Sequence record: PV660463
Origin: Escherichia phage LF82-41
Strand: one strand, 5' to 3'
Length of the DNA stretch: 64,000 bases
This document shows, piece by piece, positions 29,671 through 40,236 of the stretch. Made by a program: the position numbers and the translations under genes. Numbering within the stretch: the stretch's first letter is position 1; each line of letters begins with the position of its first letter. Below the pieces are notes generated by a model. That model made no database searches. It was not told the origin of the DNA and was given only the letters and a program-made list of their open reading frames with translations.

Positions 29671-30835
29671 CGAAATCTTCCATTTCGTCAAGGTCGTTTT
29701 CAATATCTGCTGCAGACGGAGCATCAGAAGCTTTAACAGGAACTTTAGTTGTTGCTTTGCAATTAATAAGGTCGTTAACAGCGTCATCAACTTCTTTAAT
29801 AGAAGAGATAGCACCTAGTTTATATTTAGTTTCAATTGCATCTCGGAAAGGTTTGTGTTTAAACAACGGTCCCCAGAATTCTACACAATCAGTAGCTTTA
29901 GCACGCCACGATTTCTCTTCACGAATCATTTCGCCTGTTTCTTCGTCAAGGAATTCACGAGCATACCAACCGGCTTTAGGCTTAACAACAAATCCAATTT
30001 CAGTTGCCATTTCTAACAAGCCACTGAATGGGTCGATACCACCATCAAAATTAACTGTGATTGGGAAAGTAGATTTCTCTTTAACTGTACGAGATTTTTC
30101 TGCTTTCAACGTGAAGTCATAACCGGTCAATTCTGTACCTTCTTTAACCTGACGTTTAGAGATAAAGAATACAGTGTTAGCAGAATAAAGAATACCTGTA
30201 CCACCGCCCATAATCTCTTTAGGATACAATCCGCCAATTTCCATTGCGGTATGGTTAATTGCAACACACGGAATATCTTTAATAGTCAGATACGGGGTCA
30301 CAATACGGAAAAGAGATTTAAGTGCCTTAGCACGAGACATATCACCTACAACTTTCTCGTTCAATGCATCTTCAGTTTCTTTCTTAGATGCAGTATTACC
30401 GATTGAATCGATAAAGATAATAACTTTATCACCGCGTTCAATCGCGTCAAGCTGATTAGTCATATCAACTTTAAGTTGTTCGACTGACTGAATTGGTGTA
30501 TGAACTACACGGTCTAAATCAACACCCATTGAACGAAAATAAGATTCTGAAGCACCAAATTCTGAATCATAGAACAAACAGATTGCATCTTTATATTTCT
30601 TCATATACGCTGCAACCATAGTTAGTCCAAACAACGTTTTAAAGTGTTTAGAAGGAGCAGCAAAAATAGTCAAGCCTGATTGCAATCCTGCATTCAGAGC
30701 ACCACCTAGTGCAATATTCAACATCGGAATACGAGTAGGGACTTCATCACGATTATTAAACAGCTTAGACTTAGTCAAGTCTGCAGTCATTTTAGAAGTA
30801 GAAGCTTTAATCAGACGAGATTTTAAATCAGACAT
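29663..30835 (-). CDS. uvsX: UvsX recombinase (RecA-like)
   Basis: 390 aa; RecA fold features; T4 UvsX size and synteny. Confidence 0.9.
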   Translation of the reverse strand: MSDLKSRLIKASTSKMTADLTKSKLFNNRDEVPTRIPMLNIALGGALNAGLQSGLTIFAAPSKHFKTLFGLTMVAAYMKKYKDAICLFYDSEFGASESYFRSMGVDLDRVVHTPIQSVEQLKVDMTNQLDAIERGDKVIIFIDSIGNTASKKETEDALNEKVVGDMSRAKALKSLFRIVTPYLTIKDIPCVAINHTAMEIGGLYPKEIMGGGTGILYSANTVFFISKRQVKEGTELTGYDFTLKAEKSRTVKEKSTFPITVNFDGGIDPFSGLLEMATEIGFVVKPKAGWYAREFLDEETGEMIREEKSWRAKATDCVEFWGPLFKHKPFRDAIETKYKLGAISSIKEVDDAVNDLINCKATTKVPVKASDAPSAADIENDLDEMEDFDE

Positions 30836-30933
30836 TGTATTTTTCCATAGGCATCATTATATTTTACTCATGTTTAAAAGATAAAACGATTATATACTAA
30901 GGGTTATACAGCATTTAAAACTTTAAATGGCTC

Positions 30934-31482
30934 TTAACGAGCCCATTTAATGATTTCTGTAATCAAATTATTACGTTCGCTTGCATTAAATCCTATAACT
31001 TTGTTAGAACCATCATGATTAAGTAATTGATACGTTTGGATTTTGTTATGAATTGCAAACTCTTCAAAATGTGAAATGACTGTATTAAAACCGAATGAAG
31101 ACAAAGTAATAAGGTCGTCTTCAAAACTTTCAGTCATTTCGTTACGTGTTAAAATAATTGTGAACACATCATGGTTTTGGCAAAGACGAACATAATCCTG
31201 TTCATAAACGTCAAGAACCGAGTCCGCATCTTGTCGAATACGTCCATAAACCCAGTTACTAATATATCCACGGTCTAATAGATAAATCTTAGTAGGGTCT
31301 AAATAATTCAACATCGTTTCGAAACAGCCAACTTCATTTCGAGACTTAACATCGAAACGCCCATCAACTGTTCGTTTAGGGAAATCAATCTTTACATATC
31401 TTTCACTAATTTCCATTATGTCATTAATGAAAGTTGTTTTACCAGCATTATCCGGCCCGTCTACTAAAATAATTTTAGCCAT
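30934..31482 (-). CDS. P-loop kinase-like protein (182 aa)
   Basis: Walker A ILVDGPDNAGKTT at N-terminus; sits in T4 beta-gt slot. Confidence 0.55.
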   Translation of the reverse strand: MAKIILVDGPDNAGKTTFINDIMEISERYVKIDFPKRTVDGRFDVKSRNEVGCFETMLNYLDPTKIYLLDRGYISNWVYGRIRQDADSVLDVYEQDYVRLCQNHDVFTIILTRNEMTESFEDDLITLSSFGFNTVISHFEEFAIHNKIQTYQLLNHDGSNKVIGFNASERNNLITEIIKWAR

Positions 31483-31483
31483 T

Positions 31484-32383
31484 TTATTCCTCGATTACGA
31501 CATCTTCGTATTTAGGTATATTATACGGCGAAGAAATTAAAGCATTAAAGTAGATGAACTCACCAAGACCTGGATGGAATACTTCTTCAGGATTTTCGAA
31601 ATATTGAATCTTCGGACGTCCTTTAAGAATTTGATAGTACTCAGTTTTAGTTGGATTAAAAATTCGAATCAGCGCTTCTTCAGGATACTTATTTCTGTCG
31701 AAACTATTATTTGGATCAGTTATATAAAGCGGTTGACCTAATTGAATTGCGCATTCAACAACTTGTTCAAAACGATAGCATGGGTCACTAATTCGAAATG
31801 GATGAAAAATACCATCTAGATGAATAGGAGCCAAATCACCTACAAGACGCTGCATGACGGAAGGACGTATAACTTTCTGCGTTACGATAATCTTATTACC
31901 ATCTGCACCTGCGTTAACCAGCACTTCTTTTTGACGTTCATTCAACACAGTAGTTTGAAGTGAACGATTAACAGACAACATGTCGGTTTTTAAGAATTCA
32001 TCAATATAAAAACGTGGTTTATTAGGGTCTGCAGTGATATTGAAATTGAATTCTACATCAAAAGCGCCGTCATATCCAGTGATATCTGTGATTAGAAAAT
32101 CACAATCATAATAAGCAATTAATGAATCAACCACAAATTCATTTTCAGACCAAAAATATTTACGAGTATTATACGCGTTATCTTTATACCATAATGGAAC
32201 AAACTTAAATTCTGGGAAAAGACGTTCGCATTCTTTAATATCAGATGCATTACGTGGATATGTAATCACATCACCCGGATTAGCACGGTGCAAATGAAGT
32301 TGGAAGTTGCCATCCTTAAGGATAGCATACTGTCCAGTTTCATAAGACCGCATACTCAAGATAGGTACGCGGAAAATAGCCAT
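31484..32383 (-). CDS. hypothetical protein (299 aa), beta-gt slot
   Basis: ORF track; tight packing with neighbours; no motif recognised. Confidence 0.55.
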   Translation of the reverse strand: MAIFRVPILSMRSYETGQYAILKDGNFQLHLHRANPGDVITYPRNASDIKECERLFPEFKFVPLWYKDNAYNTRKYFWSENEFVVDSLIAYYDCDFLITDITGYDGAFDVEFNFNITADPNKPRFYIDEFLKTDMLSVNRSLQTTVLNERQKEVLVNAGADGNKIIVTQKVIRPSVMQRLVGDLAPIHLDGIFHPFRISDPCYRFEQVVECAIQLGQPLYITDPNNSFDRNKYPEEALIRIFNPTKTEYYQILKGRPKIQYFENPEEVFHPGLGEFIYFNALISSPYNIPKYEDVVIEE

Positions 32384-33099
32384 TAGTCAAGGAATCCTTT
32401 AACATAATCAAAATCACGTTCAAACACATGGGCACTTACCATGGTATGAGTATAATCACCAACTTCTACACCACATTCGTTAGCGATATAATGAAGTAAT
32501 TTTCCTTGGAGATAAAAATCCAACTGCATAACAACAGCACAGTTCTGGGAACGCATATGACAGTGGGTATAAAGCTTACCGTCACGAATATAATAAGTCA
32601 CTGAGTCAGTACATGGATATTCAAGCGTTTCGTCCGAATCAAGCAAAGCCTGATCAGAACTTTCTAAAATTTGGAACACAACTCTTCGAGAGTTAGGCTT
32701 CTCTTTAAGTTCTTTTAGAAGAGCCGGTAATTGGGCCGCAATGCGAGGACCATAGAAAGTGTTGAAGTTCGCCGGCAAAGCATCCGATTTTGGTTTAGAA
32801 ATAAATTTAGCGACATTAGGATATGCCTTAAACGCTTCTTCTGCATCAGTACCACCAGAAATCATAAACTTCCAGAAGTCTTCAGCATATTCATAAGAGA
32901 TGCGGTTAATACGTGGGTCGGTCATTTTGAATGATGATGGAGTGTCAACAACTACTGTCATAGACCCAATTTCATTACAACGTCCAATACGAGAATCAGT
33001 TACGAATTCTGGGTTTTCTAAAATTTCACGATTGACTGCTTTAAATGCGGATTGAAAATCTGCGGCTTTGATATATTTCATTGTGTTATGTTTTCCCAT
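32383..33099 (-). CDS. thymidylate synthase-family pyrimidine hydroxymethylase-like enzyme (divergent gp42-like)
   Basis: 238 aa; NSRRVVFQI and EYPCTDSVTYYIRDGKLYTHCHMRSQNCAVV align with T4 gp42 DSRRGIMIY / FMCTNTVQYLIRDKKINAVVNMRSND. Confidence 0.65.
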   Translation of the reverse strand: MGKHNTMKYIKAADFQSAFKAVNREILENPEFVTDSRIGRCNEIGSMTVVVDTPSSFKMTDPRINRISYEYAEDFWKFMISGGTDAEEAFKAYPNVAKFISKPKSDALPANFNTFYGPRIAAQLPALLKELKEKPNSRRVVFQILESSDQALLDSDETLEYPCTDSVTYYIRDGKLYTHCHMRSQNCAVVMQLDFYLQGKLLHYIANECGVEVGDYTHTMVSAHVFERDFDYVKGFLD

Positions 33100-33141
33100 G
33101 TTTACCTCAATACAATTTATTATATACTCGATTCGTAAAGC

Positions 33142-33381
33142 TTATTTGAATTTCTTGGCAATGTTGGTATACCGTAAAGCTTCAGCATCGATACTTCCAA
33201 GAACACTGTGAAGAAATGCATCAGCGTAGTATTCCAATCGAACAGGTTCTTTAATCATTTTAGCCGCTTTGGTTTCAAACAGGCCCATAAGGGCCTTTTT
33301 AAGAATTTGTTCGCTGCTGTTAATTTTTATAGTCAAAATCTCTTCGTTAAGTTGGTGGTTAAAAGTTTTTCTAGAAATCAT
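33142..33381 (-). CDS. hypothetical protein (79 aa)
   Basis: ORF track. Confidence 0.45.
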   Translation of the reverse strand: MISRKTFNHQLNEEILTIKINSSEQILKKALMGLFETKAAKMIKEPVRLEYYADAFLHSVLGSIDAEALRYTNIAKKFK

Positions 33382-34538
33382 TCTGGGTACCTCAAAGCGT
33401 CATCAGAGTTAGTTATATCAATAATAGATATAGAGTTTTCTGCTAACCCGTTTTTAGATAACTGACGTTTATAATATCTTTCACAATATGTACACGTCGT
33501 CCCACAGATTTCATTAGCACAATCGAAATCTGGATGTCTGAACCACCTTTTTTCTAAAAAGCCATCTAACAAAGAGGTTTCAATATTTACTGTATGTGAA
33601 AACTCAGTTTCATTTTCAAGAGTGAAAATAGTCTCTAAAGGCTTCCACAGTTCTAACAAATTACCTTCAAACTTTTCAGAAGCGTATGCTTCAAGAACTT
33701 TCAAAATGTAGTCTGTGCTACCTGTACGTCCTGAAACTTTGAATTGAGTGATACCAATATCATTATAAAGTTTCAAATCTTGAGGACGAACAAAACGAGT
33801 TCTCAACCAGTTAAATGGGTCTGTATCACGAGCTTTAATACAGTGCTGCATAGGATACCCATTTAAGGATTTAGCATCATCAGCGGTAACATCAGTACTA
33901 TGGAAAATATAGCAAGAGTCACGATAACTACAATGTGTTGTATACCCTTTACCAGCATTAGAACAGAACTCATTTACAAGAACTTCAAATATTATATTGT
34001 TCTTATTGCAAAACTCTGCTGCACGCTTCAGGAAAGAAACTGAACGGTTCTTATGAATTCCGCAACAGACCTTTTTGATGTTATATTGGTCGTGCAAGTA
34101 TTTGATTTGAGTTACAGCATCGACATGTAGAATTGTTGAAACTTCAATCTCAATATCTTTATTGACTTCACGAACAATTTCCATAACAACAGGGTTAGCG
34201 ATAGTAATACGCCATACGCCTATTGACCAAAGATACTGAACATAATCCTGAATAGCTTTCTTCTTCCACTCAACTAGTTCTCTTTTTGAACCAGGATTTA
34301 TCGTGTTGAGTGTATAGTTAAAGCAAATACCTAATTCGTTACAACGTTTAACGTAGTCTTCTAACATCTTTTTGTCAACGTCAGGAAGCCTAAAATCAGG
34401 TCTGGCTGCTACAAAAGCCATTTCTCTTGTAGAGCCATATACTTCGTTTATCAAGCTATTAGGATAAGTTTTATTGAGCTCTACGATTTTATCAAGAAGA
34501 GCTAAATCAAAATTCGTTCCGATTTTAAAAGTATTCAT
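33378..34538 (-). CDS. Cys-rich protein (386 aa), possible Fe-S/U32-like enzyme
   Basis: C-terminal C-x3-C-x3-C-x2-C (CANEICGTTCTYC); internal EFCSNAGKGYTTHCSY loosely resembles U32 signature; tentative. Confidence 0.5.
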   Translation of the reverse strand: MNTFKIGTNFDLALLDKIVELNKTYPNSLINEVYGSTREMAFVAARPDFRLPDVDKKMLEDYVKRCNELGICFNYTLNTINPGSKRELVEWKKKAIQDYVQYLWSIGVWRITIANPVVMEIVREVNKDIEIEVSTILHVDAVTQIKYLHDQYNIKKVCCGIHKNRSVSFLKRAAEFCNKNNIIFEVLVNEFCSNAGKGYTTHCSYRDSCYIFHSTDVTADDAKSLNGYPMQHCIKARDTDPFNWLRTRFVRPQDLKLYNDIGITQFKVSGRTGSTDYILKVLEAYASEKFEGNLLELWKPLETIFTLENETEFSHTVNIETSLLDGFLEKRWFRHPDFDCANEICGTTCTYCERYYKRQLSKNGLAENSISIIDITNSDDALRYPE

Positions 34539-34595
34539 TTTTTTTGCATCTCGCGTTAATTGATGCGATGGTTTTTGCAGGTCTTACTTAAATTA

Positions 34596-34997
34596 TTATA
34601 GATTCGGTTTATATGATTTAAATGTTTCGAATTCGCCTTTATTCATAAGAGCTTTGAATTCGTCAGGACGCATAGCTTTGTCGTCGATAATCCAATCATA
34701 TACTGGTTTATGTGTTAGCAAATTATGGTACTTCAAACCAATGTTTTCCAAGTTCTGAATCAGACTTGGGAGAATGTCAATTGCTATACGTCCAGGACCT
34801 ACTGACTTCATACCGCGAGCAGTGTAAAGCGTTATGGTATGCCCTGCATCATACAGGGCATTAATGGCGGTCACCATTTCGACGTCTGGTTTGAAGTTCA
34901 CGTAATCACGATTGTTATTCCACTCTGTTATACAATCATCGACATCAAAACAAAGATTAAGCATGTTTTCTACACGGTGCATTAGATTCGTTCCCAT
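34596..34997 (-). CDS. HAD-superfamily phosphatase-like protein (133 aa)
   Basis: N-terminal FDVDDCIT resembles HAD motif I. Confidence 0.5.
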   Translation of the reverse strand: MGTNLMHRVENMLNLCFDVDDCITEWNNNRDYVNFKPDVEMVTAINALYDAGHTITLYTARGMKSVGPGRIAIDILPSLIQNLENIGLKYHNLLTHKPVYDWIIDDKAMRPDEFKALMNKGEFETFKSYKPNL

Positions 34998-36667
34998 TGA
35001 TGAGTGATATCGCCACCGATTGGACGATAAGAAACACCAGTTTCTTTATCAGTTAGTACCCATTTACCAGGATTTTTTGTAATCAGAGTAGCCGTTACAG
35101 GTTCTGCTACGTCATAACTAATAGAGCCGTCTTGAAGTACACGGCCCATGTTATGTAATTGCTTAGTCAGAAGTTCCATACCTTTATAATATGCGGCTAC
35201 CGCTTTAAGTGGATTATTCTTGAAATAACCACCTAATGCAATCCAGATAATTGCTACAGCCAAATGATGATACTCGTTAAACGAACTCATCTTTCCATAT
35301 TTGTAAACTAATGGATTGATGTTAATAGTCACATTACAAGTTGTTTCATCAATAGTAAACTGTCCCCAGGTCGGATTAGCATTGAATTCATCATAACCTG
35401 AAACAGCATAAAGCACTTTAGCTTCATCATATAATTTTGGCCCGTAAATCTTGGTTTCACCAAAATATCCACGAGGGTCGATAAACTTGACTTCGCCGTT
35501 ATCAGTAATCATAGTATTACTGAAGTTTGGGTCGCCGTGAATAACAGAGTACTGTCCCTGAGAACGGTTATGATAACGAATAAGATGTTCTAAAGCTTGT
35601 TTCAACATTGGCTTCAGACGTCCAATCTTAGTGTAGTTCACGTGTGTGATTTTACCAAATGAATCAATCAATGGCTGAATGCTTTCACAACGATCAATAA
35701 CTTTCGTATAGAACTCTTTAGTGAAATCACGGCGAACAGTTTCAGGACTTACAAAATAAGTGTCTGTGCTGAATTTCAGTGCATCTAAAATTGCATCAAC
35801 AATTTGTGGACGAGCAAGACTTGATTTGGATTTAATATATTCAAATGCCGGCTTACCTTTAATACGTTCCATTTCAAAATTATTTTCATTTACCGAAACT
35901 AACTGTGGAACTGAATCTGATTTCACTTTCAAATACCACGAAATCTCATCTTTCTGAAGAGCCCGTCCCTGTTCGGTTAATGCGAATTTAGTTACAGTTT
36001 CTTCACCAATTTCAACTGCATTAAAACTACGATTAAGTTCACGAACTTCATGAGCTTTTTCAAGTTTAGGCATATCACCTAAATCAATTATATTCATAAG
36101 CTCTGATTTATTGAATGCGCCGCTGTAAAGGAATTCTACGAAATCACGTCCTTTGCAGTATTCATGAATTTCCTCATCAGTAGAACCCATATAGAATTCC
36201 CAGTCTTTGAACTGATAAATTCCTACAACATTACCACCTGTTGAACCTACGTTAGTGATATTTTCACCGTCGAAATTATATCGACATTCGTCACCCTTAA
36301 CATAGATTGCGTTAACATTCCAAGACCATGAACCAAAATCAGGAATAATATCGCACCAGTTAACAACTACGTTATGGCCGTCTAAATCTTTATGTAATTT
36401 AGCAAGAGCATAAGCAGAACCATACGCTTCATCAACTGTACGAATAGTCACATTGAACCCTTCTTGCTCACAATAAGCTCGAACGGTTTCAGCAAATTTT
36501 GAATGAACTACTACAATAATTTCATCTGCGCCAAGGTCAGAATAAATTGTATACAAATTGCTCAGAATAGTGTCTTGTTTATAGTTAACAAGCACCTTAG
36601 GAATATGGTGAGTAATTGGATATAAACGAGTTGCTAATCCAGCACCAAGAATAACAGCTTTTTTCAT
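34982..36667 (-). CDS. bifunctional sugar-phosphate nucleotidyltransferase / APH-like kinase
   Basis: 561 aa; N-terminal MKKAVILGAGLATRLYP...PKVLV NTP-transferase signature; C-terminal VIHGDPNFSNTMITDNGEVKFIDPRGYFG kinase motif. Confidence 0.65.
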   Translation of the reverse strand: MKKAVILGAGLATRLYPITHHIPKVLVNYKQDTILSNLYTIYSDLGADEIIVVVHSKFAETVRAYCEQEGFNVTIRTVDEAYGSAYALAKLHKDLDGHNVVVNWCDIIPDFGSWSWNVNAIYVKGDECRYNFDGENITNVGSTGGNVVGIYQFKDWEFYMGSTDEEIHEYCKGRDFVEFLYSGAFNKSELMNIIDLGDMPKLEKAHEVRELNRSFNAVEIGEETVTKFALTEQGRALQKDEISWYLKVKSDSVPQLVSVNENNFEMERIKGKPAFEYIKSKSSLARPQIVDAILDALKFSTDTYFVSPETVRRDFTKEFYTKVIDRCESIQPLIDSFGKITHVNYTKIGRLKPMLKQALEHLIRYHNRSQGQYSVIHGDPNFSNTMITDNGEVKFIDPRGYFGETKIYGPKLYDEAKVLYAVSGYDEFNANPTWGQFTIDETTCNVTININPLVYKYGKMSSFNEYHHLAVAIIWIALGGYFKNNPLKAVAAYYKGMELLTKQLHNMGRVLQDGSISYDVAEPVTATLITKNPGKWVLTDKETGVSYRPIGGDITHQWERI

Positions 36668-36708
36668 GTTGAAGTCCTCATCGGTAAGTAGGTGTATTGT
36701 ACACTATT

Positions 36709-36852
36709 CTAGTTAAAGCATTCATACTTTGCCTGTAGACCAATCATAATCCATCCAATTACAAGTGTTGGAATCATTACCGGAGCCGTTAAGCTCCAGT
36801 AGATAGTCATGACAAGCATCAATAGTAAAAGTCCTATTGTTATTGCTTTCAT
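36709..36852 (-). CDS. small membrane protein (47 aa)
   Basis: Manual translation MKAITIGLLLLMLVMTIYWSLTAPVMIPTLVIGWIMIGLQAKYECFN; ATGA overlap with SIS gene stop. Confidence 0.35.
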   Translation of the reverse strand: MKAITIGLLLLMLVMTIYWSLTAPVMIPTLVIGWIMIGLQAKYECFN

Positions 36853-37484
36853 TGCTCGCCTCGTAACATGGCACCTAGTGCACCGCCTGGATGGAACTTA
36901 AGGAAATCATTAGAGGTAAATCCACGTTCAGATGAAAGGTTGATAGCGAACGTATCGATAAGCGCTAACAACAATGTAGTAGACATCGTCGGAGCTAAAG
37001 AGTTCTCGTCAACTTCTACCGCGATACCGGTACAGAACGTATAATCAAAAAGAGCTTCGTATTCTTGTGGAATGTCAGGGTTACAATGTAACAGAATCTG
37101 TTTAACCTGAGGACGAATCATACGAAGATGTTTAGCAACACCTATCATTTCTTCAGTCTTACCGGAACGACTGATGTGAACTAATACATCATTAGGTGCA
37201 ATAAATCCTGCGTCACCATGAGAATAATGCCCAGTGTTCAAATACATGCTAGGAATACCTAGTGAAGCAAATGTCTCAGAAGCTTTAGTTGCAATATTAG
37301 CATTCTTACCAACACCTGTAATAATTACTCGGCTTTCATAATTACTCAGTCCAGGGCGTCGAAGAGTTTCTAGAATAGCATTATAACGAGCAGGGTTTTG
37401 ACTAATTACTTTGGCCATAGCGGCCAAAGAAGAAGCTTGTTTTATGATTGCGTCAATAGCGATAGTAATAGGAGTAGTTTTCAT
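36849..37484 (-). CDS. SIS-domain sugar-phosphate isomerase (arabinose-5-phosphate isomerase-like)
   Basis: 211 aa; SIS features; C-terminal FHPGGALG resembles KdsD/KpsF-type API motif. Confidence 0.6.
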   Translation of the reverse strand: MKTTPITIAIDAIIKQASSLAAMAKVISQNPARYNAILETLRRPGLSNYESRVIITGVGKNANIATKASETFASLGIPSMYLNTGHYSHGDAGFIAPNDVLVHISRSGKTEEMIGVAKHLRMIRPQVKQILLHCNPDIPQEYEALFDYTFCTGIAVEVDENSLAPTMSTTLLLALIDTFAINLSSERGFTSNDFLKFHPGGALGAMLRGEQ

Positions 37485-37524
37485 ATTTCTCTCATTTAAT
37501 TAGTTTACCGTCCATGGCATTATA

Positions 37525-40236
37525 TCAAAAATCAAACATATCGAACAGAGATGCTTTCTTCTCGTAATCGAGTTTCGCTGCTGATGTGAATCCTTCAAGT
37601 GGTTTAATAAATGTCTTCTCAAGGAGAACAGTGTAGTCCATCCAATGAAGTACGTCGTCTTTAATTAAATCTGTGATTTCAGTACCAGAAGGCCATGCGA
37701 TACATTTATCACCGAACGGGTTTCCTTCACGTAAAGGCAGAACATATACTTTTTCACCTTCTACAACTTGTGGAGCATCAATATTACCTTTGATAGCTCG
37801 GTTATATGTCAGAATTCCACGAATATGGAACGGGCATTTGGGACCAGGGAATCCACCTACATCATATTTAGCAATGTTATTCGCAGAAGATACCGACGCG
37901 ATGCTAATATAATTCAATTGACGGAATTCTTTTTCAAACTCTTTAAAATATTCTTGTAATGATTCTTCACCTTCCTGAAGCATACGACGAATACATTCCT
38001 TAAGAGCTTTCTGTACTGCTTTAGGAGTCGAAGATTTCTGAGTCTCTAGACCCATGATTTTGAGTTTAGGCTCAGCGTAACGAGTACCTTCCATATCCCA
38101 CACGTTTAATGCATAACGTTTCTTACCAGTCCAGAATCCGCCAATACCTTTAGAACCAAGCGGAGGACCAGCGATAGCTTCTCGGTCCATGAACATTAAG
38201 TGTTGTTTATTGTTCATGTATTCACACATTTCACGGAAACCTTTATCAATAGCTGGTTCCATACGTTCACGTGCGAACTTATCTAAGAAGTCTACCCAAT
38301 GGTTGGTATCACGGAATTTAGATTCACCAACCTTATCGATAATTTTATCAGCAGATACGTAAATAGAGTCTGTATCACCATAAAGAACGAAAGCTTCACC
38401 TTCTGTACCACAAACTTCATTCAGATATTCATTAACTTTACGTTCAATCCACTGTAAAGCCATTTGACCAAATGTTGTGATTGCAGTAGCATTACGCAAA
38501 TCATAATAACGGAACCAAACGTTACCAAGTGCACCATAAAGCGAGTTGATGAGCAATTTACGGTTAATTTGTGCAGTCATACCTGCAACTTCAGTACGTT
38601 GAGCTCTAAACAACATTTCATTAAGAGATTTAGCAGACAACTTTTTAATCTTTTCTTTAATCTCATCGCTGAAGTCGAAACGATAATCAACATCTAATGG
38701 TTCGTCAACAGAAAGATTAGGATTATGCAATGCCTCTTTAATTATTTCACCATTACGTTGAGCTGCAAGCATGTAACCTTTATGTTCTTTACGTTGATTA
38801 AAGACCTTAGTGATTTCAGTTGGAACTACACCATCACGGTCTTTATAATACATCATGCCGTTAGGAGAGCAACTGTACACATCTGAAGGACGTTCAGCGA
38901 TTGCGTTAATATAATCATGCAGTGGAGCTACTTTAAACGTTCCTGCTATTGTTTCCGGGCTAATATTCACTTGGCGAATAATACTTGGATACAGGGATGT
39001 AAGGTCGAAACTCATTACATATTTGTATCGATTTGGAATAGGTTCCTTAACAAAAGCACCTGGATAAGGTTGAACCGGGTGAGAACGACCTTGTGGAATC
39101 ACCTTGCTCTGCTCTTTAAGGCTATTAAAAATAATAGCATCCCATGTTTTAATTGGGCTAAACACAGATTGAATCTGTATCTTAGCATAATAACCCATGT
39201 CCAAACTCAAGTTGATGAACTGACGCTTAGCATCAATTTGCAATACACGATACACGTCGATAATGTTATAAGAAATATACCGTTGGTGATTGCTTTCACG
39301 AAGCTTAGAAATAGGGCCGTCATATTTCAGTTTACCAACATTCAATTCAAATTCTGAAATGTAATCCAGAGAATACGACGGTTGATTGGTAAAAGAGAAT
39401 TTTTTGTAAAGGTCAATGTAATCAAGAACAGAGATACCGAACATTGTAATGATTTCACGAGAACCATACATGTTTTCGATAACTTTAACACGAGTTTTAC
39501 GATGTGGTGATAAACGTTTCGCAGTAGATTCGCCAAAAATATTCTTGATTCGGTTATACACATATGGAATATCAAATGACTCAACGTTCCATCCAGTCAA
39601 AATGACAGGAGTTTTCTGTTGCCAGAAGTTGAGATATTCCATCAACAATTCTTTTTCGTTATCGAACGGCATATAAATGATTTTATCGATAATTTCAGAT
39701 GGAACTTCATCACCGCCTTGTTCTTGAAGCTTAGCCGCAATTTCGATAGACCATTCTTCTACATTACCATACGGAGAATTCAATAGATCAAATACGTAGA
39801 ACCTGTCGTCAATTGAGTCATAATGGGTGATAGCATCAATCGGATGTTTTGCTTGTGACGGCTCAGGGAACCCATCCGGAGATGTTACTTCGATGTCGAA
39901 GTTAGCCACACGAATTTTTGTATGGTCGTATTTGATTTCATAGTTATAAGTGTCAGACAAATACGCCAATTTGAAATCGTCCATGCCAAGTGCTTCAAGT
40001 CCGATATCTTCCATGCGTTTAATCCATTGGGAGGCATCACGCATATTAGCGAACAACTTACGAGTACACGGTTTACCGTAGATATCGAAATATTTCGTAG
40101 CCTGACTTTCTGGACAATGAGCAAACAGTGATGGTTTATATTCTACTTCACGAGTACGTTCACGGCCATTAGAATCGATGTAACGTTCAAAAATTGAATC
40201 ACCAATCTGTTCAACCGTTAAGTAAAATTCTTTCAT
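37525..40236 (-). CDS. 43: DNA polymerase (family B)
   Basis: 903 aa; exo motifs (FDIE), pol motifs (SLYPS, YGDTDS); T4 gp43 size and synteny. Confidence 0.95.
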   Translation of the reverse strand: MKEFYLTVEQIGDSIFERYIDSNGRERTREVEYKPSLFAHCPESQATKYFDIYGKPCTRKLFANMRDASQWIKRMEDIGLEALGMDDFKLAYLSDTYNYEIKYDHTKIRVANFDIEVTSPDGFPEPSQAKHPIDAITHYDSIDDRFYVFDLLNSPYGNVEEWSIEIAAKLQEQGGDEVPSEIIDKIIYMPFDNEKELLMEYLNFWQQKTPVILTGWNVESFDIPYVYNRIKNIFGESTAKRLSPHRKTRVKVIENMYGSREIITMFGISVLDYIDLYKKFSFTNQPSYSLDYISEFELNVGKLKYDGPISKLRESNHQRYISYNIIDVYRVLQIDAKRQFINLSLDMGYYAKIQIQSVFSPIKTWDAIIFNSLKEQSKVIPQGRSHPVQPYPGAFVKEPIPNRYKYVMSFDLTSLYPSIIRQVNISPETIAGTFKVAPLHDYINAIAERPSDVYSCSPNGMMYYKDRDGVVPTEITKVFNQRKEHKGYMLAAQRNGEIIKEALHNPNLSVDEPLDVDYRFDFSDEIKEKIKKLSAKSLNEMLFRAQRTEVAGMTAQINRKLLINSLYGALGNVWFRYYDLRNATAITTFGQMALQWIERKVNEYLNEVCGTEGEAFVLYGDTDSIYVSADKIIDKVGESKFRDTNHWVDFLDKFARERMEPAIDKGFREMCEYMNNKQHLMFMDREAIAGPPLGSKGIGGFWTGKKRYALNVWDMEGTRYAEPKLKIMGLETQKSSTPKAVQKALKECIRRMLQEGEESLQEYFKEFEKEFRQLNYISIASVSSANNIAKYDVGGFPGPKCPFHIRGILTYNRAIKGNIDAPQVVEGEKVYVLPLREGNPFGDKCIAWPSGTEITDLIKDDVLHWMDYTVLLEKTFIKPLEGFTSAAKLDYEKKASLFDMFDF

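Follow-up and report, generated by a model that had tools for sequence, protein, structure and literature searches.

The DNA of phage RB69 and of Acinetobacter phage DLP3 carries arabosylated 5-hydroxycytosine, not hydroxymethylcytosine (Lee et al. 2026, PMC13326640). The activation of the sugar was reported by He et al. (Nat Chem Biol 2026), according to whom, as summarised in PMC13326640, AfhE converts D-arabinofuranose 5-phosphate (Araf-5-P) to the 1,5-bisphosphate (Araf-1,5-P2), the Mg2+-dependent phosphatase AfhF converts Araf-1,5-P2 to Araf-1-P, and the nucleotidyltransferase domain of AfhE then yields UDP-arabinose. RB69 gp51 and DLP3 gp81 were equated with AfhF (PMC13326640), and a structure, PDB 9IQW, was released on 2025-07-16 with a title that names arabinose 1,5-diphosphate as the substrate. 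We followed up a gene on the minus strand (34596..34997) of a 64,000-nucleotide stretch of Escherichia phage LF82-41 (sequence record PV660463; this whole stretch is called the window below), which an earlier note had described as a compact HAD-like sugar-phosphate phosphatase. The description held, as four HAD motifs, a HAD fold and 98% identity to AfhF were found. The gene is very probably the Mosigvirus orthologue of phage HY126 AfhF, a D-arabinofuranose-1,5-bisphosphate 5-phosphatase. The enzyme is already known, as the near-identical HY126 AfhF has been crystallised and characterised, and the value of the present analysis is mainly corrective: it supplies the strand, a probable start codon and a position for the step after the kinase, not before it.

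From the methionine at position 6 (M6) on, the window protein was identical to 9IQW at 126 of 128 residues (98%); the two proteins are of equal length from M6, and the substitutions T43S and E84A were the only difference between them. HY126 AfhF, RB69 gp51 and DLP3 gp81 share its HAD motifs and occupy the same slot downstream of an AfhE-like gene. The basis for orthology that was computed here comprised the open reading frame (ORF), motifs, fold, 98% identity, synteny and co-occurrence. The substrate, product and metal dependence were taken from the literature, with the substrate assignment resting on the PDB title and the PMC13326640 summary of He et al., and the roles of individual residues were inferred. 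A literature text search on 9IQW and arabinose 1,5-bisphosphate returned nothing relevant, and the phosphatase is not discussed in the BASEL paper. The 4.5 kb around the gene were 97-98% identical to Mosigvirus phages, including phiC120 and AlbertHofmann/Bas47, and by this similarity the window is assigned to Mosigvirus, the RB69-like T4-type coliphages. In such a phage, the phosphatase would supply one step towards UDP-arabinose, the donor for 5-hydroxycytosine arabinosylation, a hypermodification that makes RB69-like phages resistant to many restriction enzymes and alters their response to other defences.

Fold, motifs and reading frame

The earlier note had also placed a DVDD-type motif I near the N-terminus, and FDVDD was indeed present at residues 17-21, within FDVDDCIT (residues 17-24). 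HAD motif I, D18-V-D20-D21-C22, lies at 34932..34946, with Asp18 as the predicted nucleophile and Asp20 as the predicted general acid/base. Motif II is Thr59 (34821..34823) in a T-A-R-G-M-x-S loop, motif III is Lys97 (34707..34709) in H-K-P, and motif IV is Asp105-Asp106 (34680..34685), the putative Mg2+ ligands; all four are encoded on the minus strand. Across 21 aligned homologues, with identities down to 35%, D18, D20, T59, R61, G62, M63, S65, K97, P98, D105 and D106 were invariant, and the fifth position of motif I was Cys in the window protein and Thr in most relatives. The structure model placed the nucleophilic Asp at the end of strand E14-18, and T59, K97 and D105-D106 aligned with the same residues of 1xpj.

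The predicted fold was that of a capless HAD phosphatase with a Rossmann-like alpha/beta core. The phosphatases that matched it included Pnkp1 (10.4), a class C acid phosphatase (9.7), the T4 Pnkp phosphatase domain (9.6) and the heptose-1,7-bisphosphate phosphatase GmhB (8.6 and 7.2), and Foldseek concurred on the HAD fold. The lack of such a fold, which the earlier note had named as grounds for abandoning its proposal, was therefore not what the fold comparison and Foldseek returned. No Pfam model matched the protein, even with the threshold relaxed to E <= 1. The NCBIfam model TIGR01689 (EcbF-BcbF) matched with 50.4 bits (E = 2e-13), below its curated cut-off of 162 bits, and on these scores the window phosphatase represents a related subfamily and not a member. 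The HAD-IIIA model TIGR01662 gave only a faint match (14.1 bits against a cut-off of 44.6, E = 0.037).

Comparison with characterised proteins was in keeping with this placement. The identity to 1XPJ, a Vibrio cholerae structural-genomics protein, and to the capsule biosynthesis phosphatases of TIGR01689 was approximately 30%, and the bacterial loci that were examined were without an AfhE-like partner. GmhB, the HAD-IIIA 7-phosphatase, shares 11-12% identity, is longer at about 180 aa (155-182 residues in solved chains) and acts on a heptose, whereas the substrate assigned here is a pentofuranose; the likeness is structural only, and the window phosphatase falls outside HAD-IIIA. KdsC, the Kdo-8-phosphate phosphatase, is likewise a HAD enzyme, acting on a sugar-acid phosphate, and was matched by Foldseek (1k1e and 3n07, 15-19% identity), but its assigned substrate differs and the phage is without KdsA. 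The label "phosphoheptose isomerase", carried by phrog_1238 and many GenBank records, was rejected since the protein has a HAD fold and no SIS domain. GmhA, to which that name belongs, is a SIS-domain isomerase whose common ground with the window phosphatase is the label and a role in a nucleotide-sugar pathway, and the label is a propagated annotation error. A weak "polynucleotide kinase" label (phrog_415, some records) was also set aside, as it reflected only the shared HAD core.

The longest ATG-initiated reading of the ORF (34596..34997, minus strand) comprises 133 codons. This is not a chance ORF: sequence searches matched it to PDB chain 9iqw_A (E = 1e-86), to 1xpj (1.9e-10) and to phrog_1238 (5e-43), and its homologues formed 48 protein clusters, with tblastn matches in 383 phage records. 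The length of 133 aa given by the earlier note, which named no strand, stands for this longest ORF, but the protein is likely to be 128 aa long. Judged from sequence comparison, the true coding sequence is probably 34596..34982, starting at M6 (34982). The closest relatives (cluster P0001, 106 member sequences) start at M6, and the N-terminal MGTNL is present only in the longest reading. The M6 ATG (34982..34980) overlaps the stop codon of the upstream 561-aa AfhE-like gene in a TAATG (34980..34984, minus strand), and the 133-aa start at 34997, which lies 16 nt within that gene, is probably unused. The residues before M6 in the 9iqw chain differed from those of the window, suggesting that the crystallised construct begins at M6 as well. 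More distant relatives start at the position of M12 (approximately 121 aa). In phages that bear endonucleases (LC53, phiR1-RT and a20), the match to the phosphatase begins at around residue 11-13, which suggests that the window ORF could do without its first 10-12 residues. The annotation under the phosphatase match is a homing or seg-type endonuclease gene in both Yersinia phage phiR1-RT and Escherichia phage a20.

Co-occurrence across phages further linked the phosphatase to the AfhE-like gene. The numbers of records carrying each gene were equal in Escherichia (176/176), Acinetobacter (57/57), Klebsiella (25/25), Shigella (15/15), Serratia (9/9), Enterobacter (9/9), Proteus (7/7) and Yersinia (6/6), these being counts per genus and not record-by-record pairings. 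The stop-start overlap suggested translational coupling of the two genes. The pairing expected of AfhF, with an AfhE-like kinase/nucleotidyltransferase and an arabinose-5-phosphate isomerase in a cytosine-modification cluster, was found in the window, and the order isomerase, AfhE-like gene, phosphatase, ThyA-like gene, glycosyltransferase and kinase was kept in Acinetobacter phage Maestro and in a metagenomic contig (L004) at 51-71% protein identity. Serratia phage LC53 also kept the cluster order, with a homing endonuclease inserted beside its phosphatase gene (L020 3852..4490).

Order of steps in arabinose activation

The proposed pathway would begin with the SIS isomerase (36849..37484), which would convert ribulose 5-phosphate to arabinose 5-phosphate. 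The kinase domain of the AfhE-like protein (34982..36667) would phosphorylate arabinose 5-phosphate at C1, after which the capless (C0-type), Mg2+-dependent phosphatase would strip the 5-phosphate from D-arabinofuranose 1,5-bisphosphate to leave D-arabinofuranose 1-phosphate. The nucleotidyltransferase domain of the same AfhE-like protein would then make UDP-arabinofuranose, and glycosyltransferases would put the arabinose onto 5-hydroxycytosine in the phage DNA, shielding it from host nucleases. Within the phosphatase, by the standard HAD mechanism, Asp18 would form the aspartyl-phosphate intermediate and Asp20 would act as general acid/base, while the phosphate may be bound by Thr59 and Lys97 and the Mg2+ held by Asp105 and Asp106. 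The heptose pathway runs in the order isomerase, anomeric kinase, distal phosphatase GmhB and nucleotidyltransferase. Arabinose activation with the phosphatase after the kinase would parallel the GmhB step of heptose activation.

The earlier note had set the phosphatase between the isomerase and the kinase, which would make arabinose 5-phosphate its substrate, and this part of its proposal disagreed with the published assignment, which puts the enzyme after the kinase and on the bisphosphate. In the order of the earlier note, the phosphatase would release free D-arabinose, to which the kinase domain would then add the C1 phosphate. Table 1 of PMC13326640 does word the roles in this way, stating that RB69 gp51 and DLP3 gp81 "dephosphorylates Araf5p to Ara" and that the kinase domain "phosphorylates Ara to Araf1p", and small capless HAD phosphatases are often promiscuous, which would fit such an activity. 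However, the 1,5-diphosphate is the substrate given in the PDB title of the 98%-identical protein, the text of PMC13326640 that cites He et al. has the kinase acting first and the phosphatase second, and the precedent of the heptose pathway likewise involves a bisphosphate intermediate. We therefore considered release of free arabinose improbable.

The fold matches to Pnkp-type enzymes raised a different reading, in which the protein would act not on a sugar phosphate but on nucleotides of the pool, as a 5'(3')-deoxyribonucleotidase, or on the ends of DNA, as a Pnkp-like 3'-phosphatase. Those matches, at 11-14% identity, reflect the shared capless HAD core, and this reading is at odds with the translationally coupled sugar kinase/nucleotidyltransferase partner and the matching per-genus counts, as well as with the assignment of the near-identical solved protein to a sugar bisphosphate; its probability was judged to be very low. 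A phosphomutase-like HAD enzyme (cf. beta-phosphoglucomutase), which would interconvert arabinose 5-phosphate and arabinose 1-phosphate with the bisphosphate as a mere intermediate or activator, appeared the least probable of all. The Asp at the +2 position of motif I occurs in HAD phosphatases and mutases alike, and the 1,5-bisphosphate would be the exact species that such a mutase uses. Nevertheless, HAD mutases turn their substrate around with the help of a large, mobile cap domain, which they need, whereas the window protein is capless and only about 128 aa long, and a phosphatase activity was reported in the work summarised in PMC13326640. Hydrolysis of the 5-phosphate of the bisphosphate remained the preferred assignment.

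The arabinosylation cluster

All genes of the cluster lie on the minus strand and are read in the order DNA polymerase, SIS isomerase, a 47-aa ORF, AfhE-like gene, phosphatase, U32-family gene, a 79-aa ORF, ThyA-like gene, glycosyltransferase, thymidylate-kinase-like gene and UvsX. The DNA polymerase (37525..40236) is followed by the predicted arabinose-5-phosphate isomerase (36849..37484), a SIS-only protein of KdsD/KpsF type without CBS domains (TIGR00393 8.9e-32, KdsD 3.9e-30, Pfam SIS 9.6e-10). The AfhE-like gene (34982..36667) encodes a putative bifunctional enzyme of 561 aa, with an N-terminal sugar-1-phosphate nucleotidyltransferase (Pfam NTP_transferase 7.5e-10 and NCBIfam nucleotidyltransferases) and a C-terminal APH/choline-kinase-like kinase matched by weak kinase families; its role was taken from PMC13326640. 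Below the phosphatase lies the U32-family gene (33378..34538; Pfam Peptidase_U32 7.3e-11, phrog_5757), an orthologue of RB69 gp50. The small ORFs of 47 aa (36709..36852) and 79 aa (33142..33381) had no Pfam match and are annotated in related phages. In LC53, an ORF that equals a small ORF of the window in size and position is annotated with one or more transmembrane segments.

Further downstream, the ThyA-like gene (32383..33099; nearly identical to PDB 9iqc/9ir2, E = 1.8e-162; Pfam Thymidylat_synt) would encode the 5-hydroxy-dCMP synthase, a function taken from PMC13326640, where the enzyme is described as flavin-dependent and using O2. In many records, this gene carries a dCMP hydroxymethylase or thymidylate synthase label, and the description of Mosigvirus DNA as "hydroxymethyl-arabinosyl" is outdated. 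The adjoining gene (31484..32383) is a putative DNA arabinosyltransferase 1, the orthologue of RB69 gp46:47, based on its position, its 99% identity to bas47_0146 and Table 1 of PMC13326640; this glycosyltransferase had no Pfam match. The thymidylate-kinase-like nucleotide kinase (30934..31482), the orthologue of RB69 gp45, is a "putative thymidylate kinase" in AlbertHofmann, gave a weak dTMP kinase match and is listed in Table 1 of PMC13326640. The AfhE-like, U32-like and glycosyltransferase neighbours had no sequence match in the PDB. A scan for promoters and terminators over 30800..37700 found sites no more numerous than in shuffled sequence. In AlbertHofmann, the phosphatase gene is annotated as "putative phosphatase" and each flanking gene as "putative enzyme involved in UDP-arabinose biosynthesis". 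The labels "phosphoheptose isomerase", "capsule biosynthesis protein" and "dCMP hydroxymethylase" are widespread in the arabinosylation cluster and outdated.

The U32-family neighbour was present in 221 phage records, with an identity of 80% or more in every one, and the hosts were Enterobacterales and Shewanella; Acinetobacter was outside the ten most frequent genera, which limits it to at most 3 records, as compared with 57 Acinetobacter records for the phosphatase. The U32 proteins RlhA, TrhP and UbiU/V are O2-independent, prephenate-dependent hydroxylases that yield ho5C in rRNA, ho5U in tRNA and ubiquinone (PMC5727448, PMC6599085, PMC10990095). Because the ThyA-like synthase uses O2 and flavin and these hydroxylases are O2-independent, the phage U32 protein could, by analogy, back up the synthase by forming 5-hydroxycytosine under anaerobic conditions. 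In LC53 (L020 4492..6002), a type II chorismate mutase gene (Pfam CM_2 1.7e-11) comes after the U32 gene and overlaps it by 4 nt. Two observations call for caution with the anaerobic route. The 79-aa ORF of the window was rejected as a chorismate mutase, since neither Pfam nor a BLASTP comparison with the LC53 enzyme gave a match, and approximately 40 Escherichia phage records hold the phosphatase without the U32 gene (176 versus 136).

Relatives outside the phage clade

Sixteen related loci were drawn from a bacterial/archaeal genome collection, of which one, L004, is a T4-like phage contig, and the other 15 were at 31-40% identity. L004 (CAVJPU010000002.1, 167,038 bp), filed in a "bacterium" metagenome bin, holds a complete arabinosylation cluster in T4-like order and is evidently a mis-binned Straboviridae phage genome. 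An AfhE-like gene was found in none of the 15 non-phage loci. The idea that bacterial capsule loci share the arabinose-activation module was accordingly unsupported, with no such gene beside any true bacterial relative examined.

In three Chitinophagaceae (L005 1270..3048, L006 6001..7710 and L007 6001..7660), the phosphatase gene stands immediately upstream of a SIS isomerase gene and a KdsA gene. The phosphatases were 37-40% identical to that of the window, the isomerases were 36-37% identical to the phage isomerase, and KdsA was recognised by DAHP_synth_1 (3.4e-63). This order suggested a KdsC-like role for the phosphatase in Chitinophagaceae and hinted at a Kdo-type operon as the source of the phage pair. 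As a tentative proposal, more doubtful than not, the phage phosphatase and the SIS-only isomerase may have been recruited jointly from a bacterial Kdo-type operon, and the family of capless HAD proteins of approximately 110-130 aa, currently labelled "capsule biosynthesis protein" or "phosphoheptose isomerase", may be unrecognised phosphatases that remove the distal phosphate in nucleotide-sugar pathways, with KdsC analogues among them. If so, phage arabinosylation would amount to a Kdo pathway that has been re-wired, with an added kinase/nucleotidyltransferase taking the place of KdsA and KdsB.

The cyanomyophage relatives, at 31-39% identity, stand beside cytidylyltransferase-like or "ADP-heptose synthase" genes. 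Cyanomyophage and Prochlorococcus relatives (L002 4337..5306 and L011 6001..6689) overlap or abut such genes, suggesting that this small phosphatase type is used in other nucleotide-sugar pathways.
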